In this document: positions 9,194-55,668 of the stretch, piece after piece
Position numbering within the stretch: position 1 is the stretch's first letter
How the letters are laid out: the number at the start of each line of letters is the position of its first letter
Source: a virus
IMG/VR virus record: IMGVR_UViG_3300033149_003004
Coordinates: 1-64,000 of that record
DNA length: 64,000 nucleotides
Reading direction: 5' to 3' (one strand)
The notes under the pieces: model-generated
Seen by the model: only the letters and a program-made list of their open reading frames with translations
Told to the model about the DNA's origin: nothing
Databases searched by the model: none
Program-made: the position numbers and the translations under genes

Positions 9194-9266
9194 TTGGAAA
9201 AACTGTGAGGTAATAGATTAAGTACAGGGACCAACTCTTTGGGAAGAAATTAAGTTCAAACTATTG

Positions 9267-9292
9267 GCTCCGTCCCTTACGAGGGACGGAGC
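9267..9292. other. Perfect 11-bp hairpin next to iterons
   Basis: GCTCCGTCCCT-TACG-AGGGACGGAGC. Confidence 0.8.
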
Positions 9293-9492
9293 GGGGGGGG
9301 AGAAAAACTTTTCAACATCATTGATGGAAAAGAGTGTTTTCCCCCTCGGTTTGCTCAGCAAGCACTTCGCCGGTTGTTGAAAAACAGAACCTTCGCCGGT
9401 TAACGACGGAAAAGCAAGAGGAGCAAAAGCCGAACGAACAGCCTGTCCCTGACGAAGACGAAGTGACTTGGTTTTCAAGCGAGGAGTGAAAA

Positions 9493-9777
9493 ATGAAGAT
9501 CCTTGAAGCATTCGCCACCCTGGCGGTGGAACGCGAAGCGGGACGCATCGAGCTTCCACGGTGTCCGTTGCCAAACGGCCTGGACCTGGGGGTGGAATTT
9601 GTCGTGGCACTGTGCCTCGCCACCGATCGCCTGCATGGGTGCAAGACGGTGGAGGACTTGCTGAACGGAGCGATTCGGGCAGGAACCGATTTTGTGCATG
9701 GCTTGTTCGACCCGGCGGATCTGGACCGTGCAATGATCCGCGTCTGCGGCATGATCGAAGATACGGGCGAACGATGA
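9493..9777 (+). CDS. Hypothetical protein
   Basis: GAGGAG RBS, 94 aa. Confidence 0.6.
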   Translation: MKILEAFATLAVEREAGRIELPRCPLPNGLDLGVEFVVALCLATDRLHGCKTVEDLLNGAIRAGTDFVHGLFDPADLDRAMIRVCGMIEDTGER

Positions 9778-9944
9778 AGTCCGCCGAATTGCAGGCCTCA
9801 GTGATGCAAAAATTCAACATCAGCGAGAAGACCTATTGTTGAAAAACAGAACCTCGCCGGTTGTTGAAAAACTACTGAGCGAGAGAACAGAAAGTGAGAA
9901 AGATTGGTGAATACTGCGTTGTTTTCATCGTTCTGAAAATTCGG

Positions 9945-21653: not shown

Positions 21654-23314
21654 TGTCCGAAGCTCTGGCCAAAGCGATTCGCAGGACATCGGCGATTGCA
21701 TCACTTGCATTTGCATCGACCAGACAGGTTGGAGGAAGTTCTGGTGCCATTGATCTGGTCCCGTCCGATATGGCGTCCGGTTTGGATTCTTGGCAGAAGC
21801 AACAGGCGTATGCCCATCGCTACAGTCAGATGCGGGGCTGGGTATATTCGGCGATCAACGCTCTGGCCAGTGAAGCGGCTGGGCAACATGCAGTCGTGGC
21901 CCGATTGAGTGGGGTGAAGCGGGAGCAGAAACCGAGAGGAAGCAAGCTCCTAGAATTGACTCGTATGCCGCTGTCGACGCGGAGAAAGGCGGCTGAGCAG
22001 GAATACGAGATTCAGAGGGATCATCCTTTGGTGGATCTGTTGGAAAGACCCAACCCGATTCAAGAGCGATGGCAATTCGTCTATTCCTTTGTCGCTAATT
22101 TGGTGATCACTGGTTGGGCATACATTGTGCTTGGCAGGGCGAAGGGCAAGGACGGGAAGCTGGAGATGTACAGTCTCCCGACAACGTGGGTTAAACCTGT
22201 GCATGATAAGGGATCGTTCTCGTCTTTCGAGGTACGGAATCCGCGGGCAACGGGAGTGGAGCCGGCCATGCTGGATAGGAGTCAAGTGGGGTTTGCTCAT
22301 TTACCGAACCCTGGTGATCCGATGGCGGCACTGGCTCCGGCGTCGACTCAAATGATGGCGATCCGAGTAGACGATCACATTCAGACTTCTCAGGAGGCGT
22401 TCTTTCGGAACGGTATCTTCCCGAGTGTGATCATCACGATGGGTCAAGGGCCGTATCAAGACACAAAAGGGAGGCCAGTATTGACGGGGGCCCAGCGCCG
22501 GCAGATCAACTTGGCTCTGAAGAAGCGGTGGGTTGGGGATGCGAATCAAGGAAACGCCGCGATCATCGATGGCCTGATTGACAAAATTGAGCCTTGGTCC
22601 GTTTCGCATCGAGAAATGGGTTGGGAGCGTAGTGAGGAGAAAGTGAGGACACGGATTCTCAGTGCATTCGGTGTCCATCCGTTCATCCTGGGAGAGGCTG
22701 TCGGAGTGGGAGGGTATGCCCAGGCCGTGATTATCCAGGAGCGGTTCCACAAGCGAGTGAACACATACTTGGAGATGCTCGGTAATCTGTTGACGAACTT
22801 GCTTGGTGGATTGGATGAAAGCGAGCGGATGATCGTTTGGTTTGAGCAATGCCGGGCTAGCGACAAATCGTTAAGGCAGACTTTGTTGCAATTCATGCGT
22901 TCCAATGGAGATATTTCGCAGAATGAGCTAAGAGCCGAGGCTGGCTTTCCGCCGGATGAGGATTTGAATCAGGCTGTGATTCAGCCGAGTATGATGGCGG
23001 GGATTGCTCAGTTTCTTTCGCTGCTCGGAACTGGGCAGATGCAACGAGAACAAGCTGTTGTCGCTTTTGAGCTTATGGGCCTACCTTCCGGAGAGGCAGA
23101 GAAGCTTGCAGGTATGGGCTTGCCCAAGGCTGAGCCTCAGCCTCTGTTGGAAGGGCCAAAGCCGTCGAGCGAGGAAGAAAAACTGGGGGAAGAAGAGAAA
23201 AGCGAGGAGGCCATGGAAGAGCTGAAGATGGCAAACCTTCTGCTGGCCAGAGCGATGGAAGCGTCCGAATGGCAAGCGGAGCGGATCTTGAGGAGTGTCG
23301 AGTGCTCTTGCTGA
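21650..23314 (+). CDS. Portal protein (HK97 family)
   Basis: HPLVDLLERPNP, LVITGWAYI, FFRNGIFPS, ILSAFGVHPFILG, NELRAEAGFPP. Confidence 0.9.
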   Translation: MMSEALAKAIRRTSAIASLAFASTRQVGGSSGAIDLVPSDMASGLDSWQKQQAYAHRYSQMRGWVYSAINALASEAAGQHAVVARLSGVKREQKPRGSKLLELTRMPLSTRRKAAEQEYEIQRDHPLVDLLERPNPIQERWQFVYSFVANLVITGWAYIVLGRAKGKDGKLEMYSLPTTWVKPVHDKGSFSSFEVRNPRATGVEPAMLDRSQVGFAHLPNPGDPMAALAPASTQMMAIRVDDHIQTSQEAFFRNGIFPSVIITMGQGPYQDTKGRPVLTGAQRRQINLALKKRWVGDANQGNAAIIDGLIDKIEPWSVSHREMGWERSEEKVRTRILSAFGVHPFILGEAVGVGGYAQAVIIQERFHKRVNTYLEMLGNLLTNLLGGLDESERMIVWFEQCRASDKSLRQTLLQFMRSNGDISQNELRAEAGFPPDEDLNQAVIQPSMMAGIAQFLSLLGTGQMQREQAVVAFELMGLPSGEAEKLAGMGLPKAEPQPLLEGPKPSSEEEKLGEEEKSEEAMEELKMANLLLARAMEASEWQAERILRSVECSC

Positions 23315-25782
23315 CCGACCGTCGAAAGCCGAGTATTGTTCAAATTCGCCGAAAACTCACGGCCGTCCGCCGTCGCCGGTTTGAGCTGGCTGCGAAAAGC
23401 ATGCGTCTGGTGCAAAAGGTGGTGGCTAATCGGCAGTTTATGTCCACCGAGCGGGAAGTGACGAAAGCTCTTATCCCGTTTTTTGTCGAGCAGGGACGTT
23501 CGATGGCTGCTCGGCTGCGGAGGATTGAGCAGAAGACTGTAGAGAATCTATGGACGAAACGGACTTCTCTCGGCTCTGCTGCTGGCTTGATTCAGCTGAT
23601 CTTTGATCCAAAAGAATGGCGTACCAATCTGACAAATCGTTTGTTGCCGGTACTAGCCCGAAAGATGGCAGAAGCTGGCGTGGCCCACCTGATGACGCTG
23701 GGAATCGACGTGCGGAGAAAGCAAAGGAAGAAGGGATTGAAGACCACTACTGCTGCGGATTGGGCTGAGGAGAACATTGCCGATTGGGATTCGCTTGTCG
23801 AGGCTTTTGAAGCTTCTAATCTACCAATGGGAATCATGAACGAGATTCCTACTTGGATGCAGGAGAGCATCGCTGAGAGACTCTCTGAGAGTTTTGCCGA
23901 AGATTACTGGGATTCGATTAGCAAGACGACGATGGGGGATGCCGAGAAAGTCTTGCGGCAGGGATTATCTGAAGGATGGTCGATCGGTGATATGGCTGGA
24001 GAGCTACGGCAGTATTTTGAGGAGGGAGGGTTTCGATATGCCCGACGCCGGTCGGAGAACATCGCCAGAACCGAGTCCGGGAATGCTCTGAACGCTGCTA
24101 GGAAGGGCAGCGTCGCTCGACTTCAGCAGGAATTGGGACCTGAAGTGCCGATGAAACAATCGTGGCTTTCCGTGCTAGGCATTACAACGCGAGACACACA
24201 CGCGGAGCTGGATGGTGTACCGGAGAATGAACGAGGAATGTGGGTCTTATCCGGTTACGAGATACCGTGGCCCGGACATATTAGCTTGCCTCCTTCGGAG
24301 CGCTGCAATTGCTTCCCTGCTGGAACGTTGGTGTCAGGAGATTTTGTCGGGGCGCAGAGAGCGTGGTACGAGGGGACATTCACCGAAATCATAACTGGCT
24401 CTGGGAGGAGGATCACCACAACCCCACAGCACCCAATAGTGACCTTGGAGGGACTTGTTCCGGCAGGCGAGGTCAAGCCAGGCCAGAAGGTCTTGGCCTA
24501 TCGTCCGGAGGCTGATTTGCCGTCGGTGGTGGCTTCCCGTGGCGATGATGTAAAGAACGAACCAGTTGCGGTCGAGCAGCTTTTTGAGGCGTTTCTTGCC
24601 GGGACGGTTGCCGCCTCGTCCAGCATTGAAGTCAAACGCGCTCAGGTGGACGATTTCTATGGCGATGCGAAATCCTTTCAGGGCGATATCGAGATTGTAC
24701 GGGCCAACTGGGGCCTGTTGGACGATGGGAAATTCGGCCAGTTTGAGAAACGTGGCAATTCTGTCCTCATCTGTGTGGATTCCGGTTTGGTTTTGGAATT
24801 TAGAGATCGCTCTTTTGGCCTTGCGTCTGGTCGGATCGGATCGTCCCCTTCTAGCGGTCCACGCCTTGCTGAGCCACTGCTTAGCTGCCTTCGATCTATC
24901 GCCAGCATCACGCCATCGGGCTCGCTGTCCGTCGGAGTAGCTGCGGATTTCCACGTTCGCCTCGATCAATCGTTGAGACAGGACGGCCCTGGAATATCCG
25001 GTTTCCTTCGAGAGTCGTTGGAGCGGTATGCCGGATTGGTACAGTTTGATGATGTGGTCGAGGTCAGGGATTTCTATTCTGCGGGTCATGTTTACGATCT
25101 CCAAAGCCGGTGGGGATTGGTGGTTGCTTCCGATCCATTATACACTGACAATCGTTTTCCTCCTAGTGGAATTGTCGTGTCGAATTGCCAGTGCAGTCTC
25201 ACGATTGAGTTTGGGATGGACCCTGCCGAAGCCATGCAGAGGATAGAGGAGTATTGGCAACATGTAGAAGAATGGGAATCGAAAGGCTACGTGTGGCCTT
25301 GGCAGAAGTACAATCCGAACCGTGATCCTGCAACTGGAAGATTTGCTCCTGGCGGAGGTGGAGATGATGGAGGTGGAGCAAGCGGAAGGGAAGAGGGAAG
25401 AGCCGAGCGGGCGAGACGCGCACATAAGACAAGCACAGCAGAGAAGCAGAGGAGGGGAGAAGCAGAGCAAAAGCGGATGGCCAAGGCAATCGGGGGTGAG
25501 AACGATGGGGATAATAAACCATTCGATGTGATCGTGGGAGGGAAGCATGGGATTGAAGTCAAGACTGTGATGGATAACAACAACGATAAGATCACCGTGC
25601 ATCCTGAATCTCGCCGGCGGAAGGAAGCTGCCGCCAAAAAGCAAAAGCTAAAGATTCACACTATAGCTATTGATATTCGTGAGGGAAAGCGATCTTATTA
25701 TTACAGGGAGGGGGTTGGAGCCTTCCGCCTCAAAAATATGGAGAAAGTATCGCTTCGGCAGTTGAAGGAGAAGTTCCGGTGA
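23269..25782 (+). CDS. MuF/gp7-like minor head protein with intein and C-terminal nuclease-like extension (start uncertain)
   Basis: RSENIARTES, W...TRDTHAELDG, PG...ERCN/CQC after splicing; YNPNRDPATGRF then FDV...IEVK. Confidence 0.85.
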   Translation: MASGADLEECRVLLLTDRRKPSIVQIRRKLTAVRRRRFELAAKSMRLVQKVVANRQFMSTEREVTKALIPFFVEQGRSMAARLRRIEQKTVENLWTKRTSLGSAAGLIQLIFDPKEWRTNLTNRLLPVLARKMAEAGVAHLMTLGIDVRRKQRKKGLKTTTAADWAEENIADWDSLVEAFEASNLPMGIMNEIPTWMQESIAERLSESFAEDYWDSISKTTMGDAEKVLRQGLSEGWSIGDMAGELRQYFEEGGFRYARRRSENIARTESGNALNAARKGSVARLQQELGPEVPMKQSWLSVLGITTRDTHAELDGVPENERGMWVLSGYEIPWPGHISLPPSERCNCFPAGTLVSGDFVGAQRAWYEGTFTEIITGSGRRITTTPQHPIVTLEGLVPAGEVKPGQKVLAYRPEADLPSVVASRGDDVKNEPVAVEQLFEAFLAGTVAASSSIEVKRAQVDDFYGDAKSFQGDIEIVRANWGLLDDGKFGQFEKRGNSVLICVDSGLVLEFRDRSFGLASGRIGSSPSSGPRLAEPLLSCLRSIASITPSGSLSVGVAADFHVRLDQSLRQDGPGISGFLRESLERYAGLVQFDDVVEVRDFYSAGHVYDLQSRWGLVVASDPLYTDNRFPPSGIVVSNCQCSLTIEFGMDPAEAMQRIEEYWQHVEEWESKGYVWPWQKYNPNRDPATGRFAPGGGGDDGGGASGREEGRAERARRAHKTSTAEKQRRGEAEQKRMAKAIGGENDGDNKPFDVIVGGKHGIEVKTVMDNNNDKITVHPESRRRKEAAAKKQKLKIHTIAIDIREGKRSYYYREGVGAFRLKNMEKVSLRQLKEKFR
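24310..25185 (+). mobile_element. Intein (292 aa) in MuF
   Basis: Block A CFPAGTLV, block B TTTPQHPI, block F VYDLQS, terminal VVSN followed by +1 Cys; splicing restores the ERCNCQC motif. Confidence 0.9.
24334..25089 (-). CDS. Antisense-encoded HTH plus Vsr/DUF559-like PD-(D/E)xK endonuclease nested in the intein
   Basis: IIKLYQSGIPLQRLSKETGYSRAVL HTH; E...QQAPVGPYNLDIAL...IAIEI...LLDRNWFVLYI; GGAG SD 9 nt before ATG. Confidence 0.75.
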   Translation of the reverse strand: MTRRIEIPDLDHIIKLYQSGIPLQRLSKETGYSRAVLSQRLIEANVEIRSYSDGQRARWRDAGDRSKAAKQWLSKAWTARRGRSDPTRRKAKRAISKFQNQTGIHTDEDRIATFLKLAEFPIVQQAPVGPYNLDIALKGFRIAIEIVHLSAFDFNAGRGGNRPGKKRLKKLLDRNWFVLYIIATGSHHRRQISLRTIGQDLLAWLDLACRNKSLQGHYWVLWGCGDPPPRASYDFGECPLVPRSLRPDKIS

Positions 25783-26051
25783 GCTATTGGCTAGAAGACG
25801 ATAGTGGGAAGTGGCTTGGTGATTTGGCTACCAATGTTGGCATCGTAGAGTTGCGAGAGGCTGGGAGTCCTTCGCTGGTTGAATTTCTGGATGCTGGAGA
25901 AGCGGACGAGGAATTGGTTGAGAGAGTGATCATCGAGACGAGGAATTTACCAGAAGTTGCTTACATAGCAGACATGATGGAAGGGGTGAAGCCACCGATC
26001 CGCGTGACGGATGGATGCGGAGAGGCAGAGGATTTGGAGGAGGAGGCATGA
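25779..26051 (+). CDS. Small acidic protein, candidate immunity protein for the MuF toxin
   Basis: GTGA overlap with the MuF stop; very acidic against a very basic toxin domain. Confidence 0.5.
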   Translation: MSYWLEDDSGKWLGDLATNVGIVELREAGSPSLVEFLDAGEADEELVERVIIETRNLPEVAYIADMMEGVKPPIRVTDGCGEAEDLEEEA

Positions 26052-38989: not shown

Positions 38990-40876
38990 GTGGGTCTAGA
39001 GCTCGCAAAAGCGTATGTAACGGCTCGTGGCGACGTGAGCCAGGTGGCTGGCGACTTCCATGCTGGCCGGGGACAAGTCGAGCAGGCAGCCAAATCGCTG
39101 CAACTATCTGTGAATCGCATCCTCGGGATGATCGGGATTGGGGTATCGATCGGCGCAATCATCAGTGAGATGCGACAGGGGATAGTCCTTGCCGAGAGGC
39201 AGATAGATGCCGAAGCACGCATAGCTGCTGTGGTCAAGGGCACTGGGATGGCAGCCGGCTTTACTGCCGATCAGTTGAAAGCCATGGCTAGTCAGATGCA
39301 GAGGATCACGACAGTGGGAGATGAGGAGATTCTGGAGTCGATGGGGATCTTGCTCACGTTCAAAAAAGTACAGAGAGATGTATTCACGTCAGCCATAGAT
39401 ACGATACTCGATATGTCGGCTGTGATGGGCACGAACGCTCGTGGGGCAGCAATGCAGCTCGGACGCGCTTTGGAAGACCCGATTTATGGAATGACGGCCC
39501 TGCGGCGAACTGGAGTCTCGTTTAGCGAGGAGCAGAAGGATCACATCAAGCAGTTGCAGGAAACGAACAGGTTGGCCGAAGCTCAGGCTTTGATCCTAGA
39601 CATAGTCCGCGGCCAGCTCGGAGACGTGGCGGAGGCGATGGCACAAACGGATTCCGGAAAGCTGAAGCAAGCACGAAACGTACTGGGTGATTTGCGGGAG
39701 GAACTTGGAAAGAAAATGATTCCGCTTCAGATGAAGTTTGTCGAAATGCAGCAGAAGTGGATAGGACTCCTGATGAAGGCTATAGAGGTGGTAACAAGTA
39801 TTGGCAGCAGGGTCAGGGAATGGCTATCTACGCCGTTTGGTGTCTACTTGACGAACATGGCCAAAACGGTATTTTTGGGTGGGCTTGTATTAGCAGGGAC
39901 TTGGGCGTTAGTGTGGGCTGCTGGAGCTATGGCCGGAGCTTTCACCGTTGCTTGGACTTCTGCACTCGGTCCCATTGCGTTGCTCATACCTGCCATGGCG
40001 CTTGTCGGAGTAGCTATAGTCGAGCTTTGGGGGAAGGGTGACACGTTTGGGGAGAAGATGAAGGATGTATTTGAGAACAAGATACCAGACGCTATAGATG
40101 CAACGGCATTTGCTGTACGAAACTTCAGCATGATCATGGAACTTGTTGCTGTGCGATGGTCAATCAAACTATTAGAGTTGTTCGGCGGGTTGTACGAAAA
40201 GTTCTGGGAGATAGTTCCTGTGTTCGCCGGAGTCTGTGCTGGAATGAGAGCTGCCTTCGGTGCTGTTATCGACTGGATGGCCAACAAAGTTCTCAGTTTG
40301 AAGAACATCATGGCTGCCGTGGGAGCAGGCATCCAGGCGATGTTCGTTGCGGTCTTGTCTGGAAATCTTCGGGGGGCCGCCGTCGAATTCGGAAAGGCTT
40401 TCGACGCTGCAATGGCCAAAGTAGGTGCTCCTCCCAAAGTGGACATAGCTGCTCGTTTGAGAACAGCTTTCAAGATCACAGAGGATATCGTCAAGGCGAT
40501 GATCGTTGAGTTAGGCATGGATGATGCACAAAAGATGCTCGACATTCTCAGGGCTAGAGAACAAGCTCTGCTTGAAGCGATAGCAAGAATGGAGCTGGAG
40601 AGAAAGAAAAAGAAGGAAGATGAAGACAAAGAGGATAAAAAGAAACCATCGCCGGAGAAAGTAGCAGAAGCAGTAGCAGAAGCCGAGCGGTCGATGGCCG
40701 GACGATACGGATTCCTGGAGTATAGTAGGGCATTGCAGGATATGTTGCTTACGAGAGACGATTCTGCGAAGAAGACAGCCGAGAACACGAAGAAGGCAAA
40801 TGAACAATTAGAAGATGCAAATGCAAAGTTGGCGAAGCTAATCGAAGTTGGTAAGGGACCAAGCGTCTTCGTGTGA
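38990..40876 (+). CDS. Tape measure protein
   Basis: ELAKAYV start, AMQLGRALEDP..GMTALRRTGVSF, hydrophobic mid-region. Confidence 0.9.
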   Translation: MGLELAKAYVTARGDVSQVAGDFHAGRGQVEQAAKSLQLSVNRILGMIGIGVSIGAIISEMRQGIVLAERQIDAEARIAAVVKGTGMAAGFTADQLKAMASQMQRITTVGDEEILESMGILLTFKKVQRDVFTSAIDTILDMSAVMGTNARGAAMQLGRALEDPIYGMTALRRTGVSFSEEQKDHIKQLQETNRLAEAQALILDIVRGQLGDVAEAMAQTDSGKLKQARNVLGDLREELGKKMIPLQMKFVEMQQKWIGLLMKAIEVVTSIGSRVREWLSTPFGVYLTNMAKTVFLGGLVLAGTWALVWAAGAMAGAFTVAWTSALGPIALLIPAMALVGVAIVELWGKGDTFGEKMKDVFENKIPDAIDATAFAVRNFSMIMELVAVRWSIKLLELFGGLYEKFWEIVPVFAGVCAGMRAAFGAVIDWMANKVLSLKNIMAAVGAGIQAMFVAVLSGNLRGAAVEFGKAFDAAMAKVGAPPKVDIAARLRTAFKITEDIVKAMIVELGMDDAQKMLDILRAREQALLEAIARMELERKKKKEDEDKEDKKKPSPEKVAEAVAEAERSMAGRYGFLEYSRALQDMLLTRDDSAKKTAENTKKANEQLEDANAKLAKLIEVGKGPSVFV

Positions 40877-40888
40877 GGAGCGTAATAG

Positions 40889-41851
40889 ATGCAACACTCA
40901 TCGGAGTGGAAATTGACCTCGCCAGGTGGAGTACCTTACAAGTTGATCCGGCAGTCGGGATCATTTGGTTGTGAAGATGCTTCATGGAATATGGAGATCT
41001 GTATACGGTCGCACGATTTGACTGCGTTCATTGCCGAATGTTTCCCCGCTCCGTATGTGTCCGGTTCGTTCGTCATCTATCCAAAGCGATTCTATCCGGC
41101 TGGCTTGCCCTCGCTAGAGTGTAAGACTGTAAATGTCGAGGGGTTCACTTCGGGAAAGCCGATCGATCCGTTCGGCGTCGGCATTAGTCTTTACTCTCCG
41201 GAAGAATATGTTGCAACGTATGAGCCTTATCTACGACTGACTTTAGCATTTGGACCATGTCCGTCTAATGATCAAGAGCAAGATACTTCCAACCCATTCA
41301 CGTGGCTGGAGGTCACCGCTAACGAGAGCGGTGAGTTCCTGACGAGCGATATTGATCAAGAGAAGATTCGCTGGCAGGATGAGGATGGGAACACAGAACT
41401 TCCGAGTGAGGAAGATACTCAGCTCAGTCAGCCGGTCAAGACCGTAGGAACGGAGTGGACTTGTAGATGGCCCCAGATACCATTTGATTTCTTTCAAGAT
41501 ACACTCGTGCCTAGGATGCGTGCGGTTGAGGGACAGGTCAACGACGCTCCAATGGAGTTATTTGCTAATGCTCCAGCCGAGACTATATTGTTCTTGGGTT
41601 TTCAGAATAGCTACGAATACACGTGGCGTGAGGGGCGTTCTGGAACGAGTCCTGTGCAGGCCACGCTGAGGTTCGCCGAAAAGAATTTCATCGGTCGGCA
41701 GATGGTGATCGATCCTGTCTTCAGCTTTTGGCAGGATGTACAGGTGACCCACAACCATATCTGGCGACCAAACCATGGCTGGCAGCGAATGTTGATCGGT
41801 ACTGAGCCTCTGTATAAGAGCGGCAATCTGAACAGCATTTTCACTGGATAA
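40889..41851 (+). CDS. Putative distal tail/hub protein
   Basis: Directly after tape measure; APAETILFLG motif. Confidence 0.55.
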   Translation: MQHSSEWKLTSPGGVPYKLIRQSGSFGCEDASWNMEICIRSHDLTAFIAECFPAPYVSGSFVIYPKRFYPAGLPSLECKTVNVEGFTSGKPIDPFGVGISLYSPEEYVATYEPYLRLTLAFGPCPSNDQEQDTSNPFTWLEVTANESGEFLTSDIDQEKIRWQDEDGNTELPSEEDTQLSQPVKTVGTEWTCRWPQIPFDFFQDTLVPRMRAVEGQVNDAPMELFANAPAETILFLGFQNSYEYTWREGRSGTSPVQATLRFAEKNFIGRQMVIDPVFSFWQDVQVTHNHIWRPNHGWQRMLIGTEPLYKSGNLNSIFTG

Positions 41852-54687: not shown

Positions 54688-54885
54688 ATGAAGACGAAGA
54701 GAACAGCACGAGCCGAGGTCAAATGCGAGTCCGGTCTGCCCCAGGCCCGGTATCTCGGCTGGGATGAGAGCGAGCAAGCCTGGCGATTCCTCGAACTCGA
54801 AACAGGCGAAGTGTTCTTCGTGGACATCTTCGCTGTCACGCCGGGCCACTACGAGATCGCGGGCAAGGTCTACCGCAGGGGCTAG
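54688..54885 (+). CDS. Small hypothetical protein (early-type)
   Basis: CAGGAGACTG leader. Confidence 0.7.
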   Translation: MKTKRTARAEVKCESGLPQARYLGWDESEQAWRFLELETGEVFFVDIFAVTPGHYEIAGKVYRRG

Positions 54886-54947
54886 CAGATAGTAATAGTA
54901 GAGGTGAGGGAAAAAGGGGCACAACACCTACCACAGGAGACTGAGAG

Positions 54948-55244
54948 ATGAAGACGAAACGAACAGCACAAGTTGAGGTGAGGGGTCAGCACAGCCGGGG
55001 TGCTAATGCTCAGGGGTTTGGCGGGCCCGACACCTACGTGGCGGTCCAGGTGGTGCCGGAGGGAGTCGAGCCTCTCCGTCGCCTTGACCGCAAGGCGGCT
55101 GCCCGTCGCGGCATCGAACTCATCTACGTGGGTGAGGGATATGATGAGCACCGTGGGCCGCGGAGCTCGCTGGGGAGGGCAATCCGCAAGGCCACGGAGA
55201 TTGCGGACCGGATCAACGGGAGAGTGGGAGGCTGGCCCATCTGA
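54948..55244 (+). CDS. Hypothetical protein, paralog A
   Basis: Near-identical core to 55306-55668. Confidence 0.75.
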   Translation: MKTKRTAQVEVRGQHSRGANAQGFGGPDTYVAVQVVPEGVEPLRRLDRKAAARRGIELIYVGEGYDEHRGPRSSLGRAIRKATEIADRINGRVGGWPI

Positions 55245-55305
55245 TGCTTCCTCAGGCGCACGGAAGCGCCTGAGGATCCTAACACTTACCACAGGAGACT
55301 GAGAG

Positions 55306-55668
55306 ATGAAGCCGAAAAGAACAGCACGAGTCGAGGTGAGAAGCAAGCACAGCCGAGGTGTTGGTCCTCGGAGATTTGGCGGGCCCGACACCTACGTGGC
55401 GGTCCAGGTGGTGCCGGAGAGGGTTGAGCCTCTCCGTCGCCTCGACCGCAAGGCGGCTGCCCGTCGTGGGATCGAACTTATCTACGTGGGTGAGGGATAC
55501 GCGAAGCACTTTGGCCCCCGCAGCACGTTGGGGGAGGCAATCCGCAAGGCCACGGAGATTGTGGATCGGATCAACGCGGAAGAGGGAACTGGAGAGACTA
55601 AGTCAGTCCACTGGGGCATCCAGTCCGCGAAGCTGTGGAGATTGCGGTTCGGACTAGCGAAGAGGTAG
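55306..55668 (+). CDS. Hypothetical protein, paralog B
   Basis: Shares FGGPDTYVAVQVVP...IELIYVGEGY. Confidence 0.75.
   Translation: MKPKRTARVEVRSKHSRGVGPRRFGGPDTYVAVQVVPERVEPLRRLDRKAAARRGIELIYVGEGYAKHFGPRSTLGEAIRKATEIVDRINAEEGTGETKSVHWGIQSAKLWRLRFGLAKR

Follow-up and report, generated by a model that had tools for sequence, protein, structure and literature searches.

A stretch of viral DNA comprising positions 1 to 64,000 of the IMG/VR record IMGVR_UViG_3300033149_003004 (hereafter the window, 53% GC) carries an intein inside a gene for a MuF-like head morphogenesis protein. The opposite strand of this intein carries a second gene, read backwards in exact codon register, for a protein with a predicted N-terminal helix-turn-helix (HTH) module and a predicted Vsr/DUF559-like nuclease domain. 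We consider it quite likely that this nuclease drives the homing of the intein. The two genes and the parts of the interrupted one are listed below, each with the evidence for it in brackets.

23269..25782, + strand: MuF-like head morphogenesis/minor capsid precursor gene, 837 amino acids (aa), with the intein inside (open reading frame, ORF; Pfam PF04233, PHROG 15127/2468)
23269..24309, + strand: N-extein, 347 aa, ending in ...PPSERCN (homologs of up to 68% identity run straight into CQCSLTIEFGM)
24310..25185, + strand: intein, 292 aa, Cys1 to Asn292 (intein-less alleles; KlbA, RadA and RecA intein profile matches; Hint-fold matches with Z up to 12.6)
25186..25782, + strand: C-extein, CQCSLTIEFGM... 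with a C-terminal extension (ORF and alignment; the tail is common to the intein-less relative P0008)
24334..25089, - strand: antisense gene for a 251-aa HTH and Vsr/DUF559-like nuclease, a putative homing endonuclease (homologs, open frame, nonsynonymous to synonymous ratio pN/pS, AlphaFold2 (AF2) model)

Two open frames in one MuF locus

The Phage_Mu_F family (PF04233) and PHROG head-protein families match the + strand ORF 23269..25782 in Pfam and PHROG searches. The intein starts with CFPAGTLV, ends with VVSN and is inserted at ERCN|CQC. Its boundaries are exact because intein-less relatives run through the RCN|CQC junction uninterrupted. This motif, or a near variant of it, is continuous in most of the 57 N-extein homologs listed by the database search, and the closest MuF relatives (66-68% identity) read ...RCN|CQCSLTIEFGM... 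with no insert. That the closest homologs have no intein at the exact junction fits a mobile element, which is present in some close relatives and absent from others. In all 21 related loci the insert sits in a MuF-type protein, at one and the same conserved ...N|C[QRK]C motif. A scan of viral contigs for close relatives with the N-extein as the query found none, and the portal-MuF region has no nucleotide match in the phage collection.

The minus-strand ORF starts with an ATG at 25089 and stops at 24334-24336. Antisense residue j pairs with intein residue 261-j, and the ORF spans intein codons 10-260, block B and the block F His included. Since its stop falls at intein codon 9, the ORF crosses block B. 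A sequence-only reading of the window, made before these searches, had proposed a 292-aa intein in the MuF ERCN|CQC motif and a 251-aa minus-strand ORF (25089 to 24334) lying wholly inside it and extending across block B; the junction is borne out by the intein-less relatives, and the coordinates and register by our analysis.

The conservation of the antisense frame provides the first argument that it is a gene. Homologs of the antisense protein in the protein database have 34-66% identity, and a search with this protein recovered 21 loci in viral contigs and metagenome-assembled genomes, down to ~25% identity. Over the matched stretch, every one of them keeps an open antisense frame as well as an open codon-aligned host frame. 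As a check on ascertainment, the phage collection was searched with the sense Hint N-lobe alone, and three carriers that are absent from the antisense-search matches listed were examined, namely Edwardsiella MSW-3, Gordonia Malisha and Vibrio vB_VaM_H2. Both frames are open in all three, and each has a ~300-aa antisense ORF with HTH repeats, a YN.D...A.E core and a start opposite the block F His. Searching MSW-3 and vB_VaM_H2 by tblastn with the window antisense protein gave no significant match. The earlier reading had held that stops in homologous antisense ORFs would speak against it; the frame is intact at 24 of 24 loci, three of them found via the Hint lobe only. In the loci examined, the nuclease gene occurs only inside the MuF-site intein.

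Antisense stops in the codon-aligned register correspond to sense TTA, CTA and TCA codons. Such shadow-stop codons occur at 2.1% per codon in the other window genes and at the same rate in the host exteins, and 24334-25138 contains none. The chance of 251 codons without a shadow stop is 0.005 in the window, and the open antisense frames give a summed log10 P of ~-34 over 18 loci.

The sense frame of the insert divides into two Hint lobes and a central linker.

24310..24504, + strand: Hint N-lobe, intein residues 1-65, with block A CFPAGTLV and block B TTTPQHP (AF2 pLDDT 84-95, the predicted score of the local distance difference test)
24505..25026, + strand: sense-frame linker, intein residues 66-239, stop-free (low AF2 confidence over residues 135-231; only the Hint lobes match structures)
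25027..25185, + strand: Hint C-lobe, intein residues 240-292, with the close-group insert SDPLYTDNRFPPS (AF2 pLDDT 69-96; alignment)
25087-25104, + strand: block F, HVYDLQ (alignment)
25174-25185, + strand: block G, VVSN (alignment)

From these features the MuF insert is assigned to the class-1-type mini-inteins, and splicing is predicted. The nucleophiles are Cys1 at 24310-24312 and Cys+1 at 25186-25188. The block B TxxH motif is T38-P-Q-H41, and H41 and P42 are invariant among the 21 sequences from which the intein profile and the AF2 model of the sense intein were built. Asn292 is likewise invariant. The penultimate residue is Ser (VVSN) in the window and most relatives, and His in three loci only; His usually stands before the C-terminal Asn of inteins, but some active ones lack it. 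Solved inteins match the profile at its two ends only (KlbA at 4e-11, then RadA and RecA), and the AF2 sense lobes match the Hedgehog Hint domain and many inteins (Z 9-12.6, root-mean-square deviation (rmsd) 1.4-2.5). All structural matches of the sense intein with Z of at least 5 are Hint domains, with ~100-110 residues aligned. Conversely, sense residues 135-231 have a pLDDT of 31-39 and are predicted to be unstructured. Domain, profile and structure searches of the sense interior found no LAGLIDADG, HNH or other nuclease match. The earlier reading had likewise seen no LAGLIDADG or HNH motif there, and it had counted a folded endonuclease in this region as evidence against itself; only the two Hint lobes fold.

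Three related MuF inteins open with Ala instead of Cys (AIAAD, AVLGN and AVMAG, at L008:5917-6717, L019:5965-6711 and L021:2431-3198, minus strand). By sequence the intein profile matches the Ala1 KlbA intein best, and on this basis part of this MuF intein family may use a non-class-1 splicing route.

Fold of the antisense protein and selection on each strand

An AF2 model of the antisense protein, built from 27 sequences, has a mean pLDDT of 89.9. The following features are located on it.

24949..25086, - strand: N-terminal HTH DNA-binding module (predicted), nuclease residues 2-47 (HTH of Tn3 resolvase, Hin and Tc3, Z 5.7-6.7 in VIA; HTH_58)
24364..24786, - strand: Vsr-like PD-(D/E)xK nuclease domain (predicted), residues 102-242 (VIA structure matches; PDB profile matches)
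24766-24768, - strand: invariant E108
24688-24690, - strand: invariant D134
24655-24657, - strand: invariant E145

A Foldseek search of the PDB with the whole two-domain model returned nothing at E<=0.001, with Vsr at the top of its results at E 0.11. The VIA wide search separated the two domains. For residues 102-242 it aligned Vsr (1cw0, Z 9.3, 120 residues), the catalytic domain of the homing endonuclease I-Bth0305I (3r3p, Z 9.0, 96 of 98 residues) and a DUF559 protein (3hrl, Z 8.8, rmsd 2.1). A family profile run against PDB sequences recovered two of the same structures, 3hrl at 1.7e-4 and 3r3p at 5e-3. In Pfam, 16 of the 27 family members match REase_MTES_1575 (PF18741; best 7e-7), 11 match HTH_58 and six match DUF559 (PF04480). 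The predicted fold is therefore a confident one, and the product is modeled as an HTH module joined to a Vsr/DUF559-like nuclease, as the sequence-only reading had suggested.

E108, Q125, Y131, N132, D134, E145 and R167 are invariant in the nuclease family, and E108, D134 and E145 stay so down to ~25% identity. D134 aligns with the metal-binding Asp of I-Bth0305I, which is D196 and is mutated in 3r3p. E145 is invariant as in DUF559, and H148 of the window protein is not conserved in the family. Some of the antisense nucleases, of ~285-300 aa, have a duplicated N-terminal HTH (P0006; L024:2001-2975, L025:2001-2987 and L026:2001-2951); DNA-binding modules thus appear to be gained and lost among these proteins.

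Frame-specific substitution analysis of nine closer sequences shows which of the two proteins each region is kept for. The pN/pS values are as follows.

Centre, nuclease residues 22-195: antisense 0.47, sense 0.80
Hint N-lobe: antisense 0.72, sense 0.57
Extein control, single-coding: antisense 1.02, sense 0.39

This partition indicates that it is mostly the antisense protein that constrains the centre, and splicing that constrains the lobes. The antisense frame is the higher of the two in amino-acid identity in 88% of distant pairs, whereas the sense frame is the better conserved one in the Hint N-lobe, which on the minus strand corresponds to nuclease residues 196-251. About 55 and 20 codons at the two ends appear from these comparisons to be constrained in both frames. 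The earlier reading had asked which strand is under purifying selection, and across the centre it is the antisense strand more strongly. Its broader proposal, a dual-coding element whose sense frame stays open for splicing, is favored by the homolog, selection and fold tests alike.

Expression signals, a proposed homing cycle and competing explanations

Two candidate expression signals lie upstream of the antisense start.

25099-25102, - strand: Shine-Dalgarno (SD) sequence GGAG, 9 nt upstream of the ATG (reverse complement of the Leu codon CTC and the C of Gln in block F)
25137-25142, - strand: -10-like TATAAT, 53 nt upstream of the ATG, a candidate promoter element (antisense of CCA-TTA-TAC in the F-G insert)

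The antisense start is the reverse complement of the block F His (GHVYDLQ) in 13 loci, with CAT giving ATG in 12 of them and CAC giving GTG once. The Leu two codons past this His is encoded by CTC in 14 of 17 loci and, with the next C, gives GGAG 8-9 nt upstream of the start; in the window CTC accounts for only ~15% of Leu codons. The SD that had been read in the window as the antisense of block F codons, opposite CTC-C, is thus a recurrent feature. In some high-GC loci the -10-like hexamer is made of AT-rich Ile-Val or Ile-Leu codons of block G, and TTGACA stands at the right spacing in two loci. The ATG, the SD and the -10-like box therefore appear to be kept through a biased choice of synonymous codons in the sense frame.

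The F-G insert itself, of 6-14 residues, is variable and restricted to the closer group (25129-25167 in the window, SDPLYTDNRFPPS; L001-L007 and L020). Its other strand bears TATAAT or TACAAT, and a TTGACA made up of block G codons precedes it in L002 and L004. It has the look of an insertion that carries a promoter and that the Hint C-lobe tolerates.

We propose the following cycle. The + strand would be translated through the insert as a MuF precursor, and the Hint lobes (residues 1-65 and 240-292) would then associate and splice out the whole insert, the linker being discarded. For the ~170 codons between the lobes, the chief role in the sense frame would be that of a linker without stops, disordered over most of its length. 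The minus strand would be transcribed from its own promoter to give a separate nuclease, which would cut intein-less MuF alleles near RCN|CQC during co-infection, by analogy with I-Bth0305I (PMC3239194). Recombinational repair would copy the intein, with the nuclease gene, into the cut allele. Any stop in the host frame would cost the phage its head protein, which would be enough to hold that frame open. For the antisense frame to stay open the nuclease would have to be under selection, and the data show that it is.

Splicing and nuclease expression also share bases. The C-terminal 55 residues of the nuclease are encoded opposite the folded Hint N-lobe, and the -10 box, the SD and the start lie opposite codons of blocks G and F or codons next to them; selection for splicing and selection for expression of the nuclease would thus fall on shared bases. 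Whether nuclease gene and intein are locked into one obligate unit, with shared bases and an antisense timing of its own, is a question on which we come down slightly on the negative side. If they are, the nuclease, transcribed in antisense through a late structural gene, would be timed independently of MuF, and the same transcription might modulate how MuF is expressed.

Several points weigh against the interpretation as a nuclease-driven homing element. The family does not conserve the His and Asp of the EDxHD motif, which leaves the catalytic mechanism and the activity uncertain. The window antisense protein itself matches no Pfam (E up to 1), PHROG or NCBIfam family. Sense residues 85-133 reach an AF2 pLDDT of 65-82, and the sense centre is perhaps not wholly inert. 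A generic sigma-70 scan of 24000-25800 found no full promoter, and the window -35 is poor (2/6). Of the 14 loci with a clear start, 11 have a -10-like hexamer between -51 and -58, but its binomial P of ~1e-17 against each locus's own background is optimistic, the loci being related and the search window having been picked post hoc. The conserved SD, start codon and -10-like box are the features from which we infer antisense transcription and translation.

One alternative accepts the antisense protein as real but not, or no longer, as a homing endonuclease. It would be a domesticated DNA-binding protein or nuclease, with a role in regulation, host DNA attack, defence or counter-defence, or it would belong to a vertically inherited element. 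The unconserved EDxHD residues would suit such a protein, as would the single MuF site used in all loci examined, and most VSR-like intein clusters look vertically inherited (bioRxiv 10.1101/2025.01.02.630785). We nevertheless regard this explanation as unlikely. The invariance of E108, D134 and E145 to ~25% identity argues for a retained nuclease, a proven homing endonuclease is among the closest structural relatives, the closest MuF relatives have no intein at the exact junction, and the gene is confined to the MuF-site intein in the loci examined.

It is improbable, in our judgment, that both frames encode folded protein in part of the centre, with sense residues ~85-133 as a structured accessory element of the intein. 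The invariant sense residues G118, V130 and L136 that could be cited for it mirror the nuclease core Y131, N132, D134 and E145 and are therefore expected without any sense function. The model does place a helix (88-102) and strands within this segment at the confidence given above, and the antisense-frame pS is below that of the extein (0.66 vs 0.79). However, structural alignments to solved inteins cover ~105-110 residues, about the share of the two lobes, and the sense pN/pS of the centre is 0.80. The confidence at 85-133 may come from real structure or from conservation that the nuclease core imposes from the opposite strand.

The length of the antisense ORF alone proves nothing, because the codon-aligned register is the one most prone to shadow ORFs and the window contains 47 minus-strand stop-to-stop ORFs of at least 150 aa, the longest of 363 aa (39844-40935); the significance of the ORF rests on conservation, fold and signals, not on length. 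That it is only a non-coding shadow of the intein sense frame, due to a chance lack of TTA, CTA and TCA, is a reading that the lack of a family match for the window protein would also suit, but we reject it as extremely improbable, since it is contradicted by the open frames at 24 of 24 loci with their summed P, by an antisense pN/pS in the centre that is lower, with identity higher, in reverse of the extein control, and by a confidently modeled Vsr-like fold in a family that matches REase_MTES_1575, DUF559 and HTH_58.

Relation to described inteins and neighboring observations

The sequence-only reading knew of no description of this arrangement. However, antisense VSR-like endonucleases in full inteins of actinobacteriophage minor capsid proteins have been described by Gosselin, Arsenault and Gogarten (bioRxiv 10.1101/2025.01.02.630785), who report that minor capsid proteins carry only such non-canonical inteins, that the VSR-like product matches 1CW0 (Z 10.6) and 3R3P by HHpred, and that the in-frame region is unstructured. 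The window intein resembles theirs in being contiguous and non-split, in residing in a minor capsid/MuF protein with the nuclease ORF antisense inside it, in the predicted Vsr (1CW0)- and 3R3P-like fold of the antisense product, and in an in-frame nuclease region without recognizable structure. Gordonia phages of the kind they surveyed are direct tblastn matches of the window antisense protein. Unlike their set, the window is not a known actinobacteriophage, and the relatives include Pseudomonas, Vibrio, Cronobacter and Edwardsiella phages and many metagenome contigs. The arrangement is therefore already known, and the window adds a member outside the known actinobacteriophages and a wider phage host range. 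A word search of the main text of the preprint finds none of "promoter", "start codon" or "ribosom", and its main-text passages on codons and purifying selection contain nothing on codon register, on the origin of the SD and ATG, or on frame-specific selection for the VSR-like antisense type. The exact codon register, the region-wise partition of selection, and the start, SD and -10-like box in the antisense of splicing blocks are what the window adds in these respects.

Antisense endonucleases of the LAGLIDADG type in the Synechocystis DnaX and Chloroflexus inteins are credited in the same preprint to Gorbalenya 1998 and Gogarten 2002. The DnaX intein has been revisited with frame-specific dN/dS (nonsynonymous to synonymous substitution rates) and a +2 ORF (Phillips et al., bioRxiv 10.64898/2026.09.14.751524). 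The window intein resembles this cyanobacterial intein in having its endonuclease in a non-intein frame, with the alternative frame under purifying selection and the intein frame relaxed. It differs in the nuclease (Vsr-like rather than LAGLIDADG), in the host gene (phage MuF rather than cellular dnaX) and in the relation of the frames, the DnaX one being a +2 ORF in the 2026 preprint.

Like I-Bth0305I (Taylor et al. 2011, PMC3239194), the window nuclease combines N-terminal DNA-binding modules with a C-terminal Vsr-like catalytic domain, keeps the Glu and metal-binding Asp positions, and is tied to a self-splicing element in a phage. In contrast to I-Bth0305I, which belongs to a group I intron and has NUMOD-like motifs, it is intein-borne, has a resolvase-type HTH and belongs to a family in which the EDxHD His and Asp vary.

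Dassa et al. (2009, PMC2677866) reported split inteins whose two halves flank a Vsr-like endonuclease gene; the broken gene keeps the orientation and the locus that it had originally. These fractured genes share with the window a free-standing Vsr-like or GIY-YIG gene in the endonuclease slot of an intein, expression signals of its own and a phage setting. In fractured genes, however, the host gene and the intein are split in two and splice in trans. The window keeps one unbroken host frame, since its nuclease gene runs in reverse, in a register without stops. We therefore rejected a fractured-gene or split-intein reading, the sense frame being continuous over 23269-25782 and in all related loci. 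With canonical bifunctional inteins such as PI-SceI and PI-PfuI, the window element shares a nuclease-coding segment between the Hint lobes and the same presumed homing cycle. There the endonuclease is an in-frame domain of one polypeptide, whereas the window nuclease is encoded by the other strand as a polypeptide of its own.

About 750 bp of a phage structural gene thus code for two proteins on opposite strands. In the Gordonia, Pseudomonas, Edwardsiella and Vibrio phage records inspected, only the host MuF gene is annotated over the match and the nuclease gene is unannotated; pipelines that bar overlapping genes on opposite strands miss such nucleases. The locus is a clean case of sense/antisense dual coding in nature, one in which the split of selective constraint between the frames can be measured, and it supports the view that inteins gain mobility by capturing free-standing endonuclease genes. 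Cultured carriers, among them Gordonia phage Vivi2, Pseudomonas vB_Pae phages, Cronobacter phage ES2 and Edwardsiella phage MSW-3, exist for tests of expression, cleavage and homing.

The antisense gene had also been called the only credible minus-strand gene in the 64 kb, which is not established. Nearly all of the 47 long minus-strand ORFs sit wholly within + strand genes. In this genome long shadow ORFs on the antisense strand occur often, and they are not to be read as genes without evidence of conservation. Two of the ORFs, 9218-9832 (204 aa) and 54882-55391 (169 aa), overlap no + strand ORF of at least 150 aa; neither has a Pfam match, and they may be further genuine genes.

Downstream of the MuF domain, the window encodes a Gly-rich linker and a basic C-terminal domain (25255-25782). 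This tail of the C-extein has no Pfam match. ADP-ribosyltransferase-type domains (PF03496 and PF01129) are found at the C-terminus of other MuF homologs of the N-extein (proteins P0021, P0025 and P0027). From these sequences, MuF may be a carrier of variable C-terminal effector domains.

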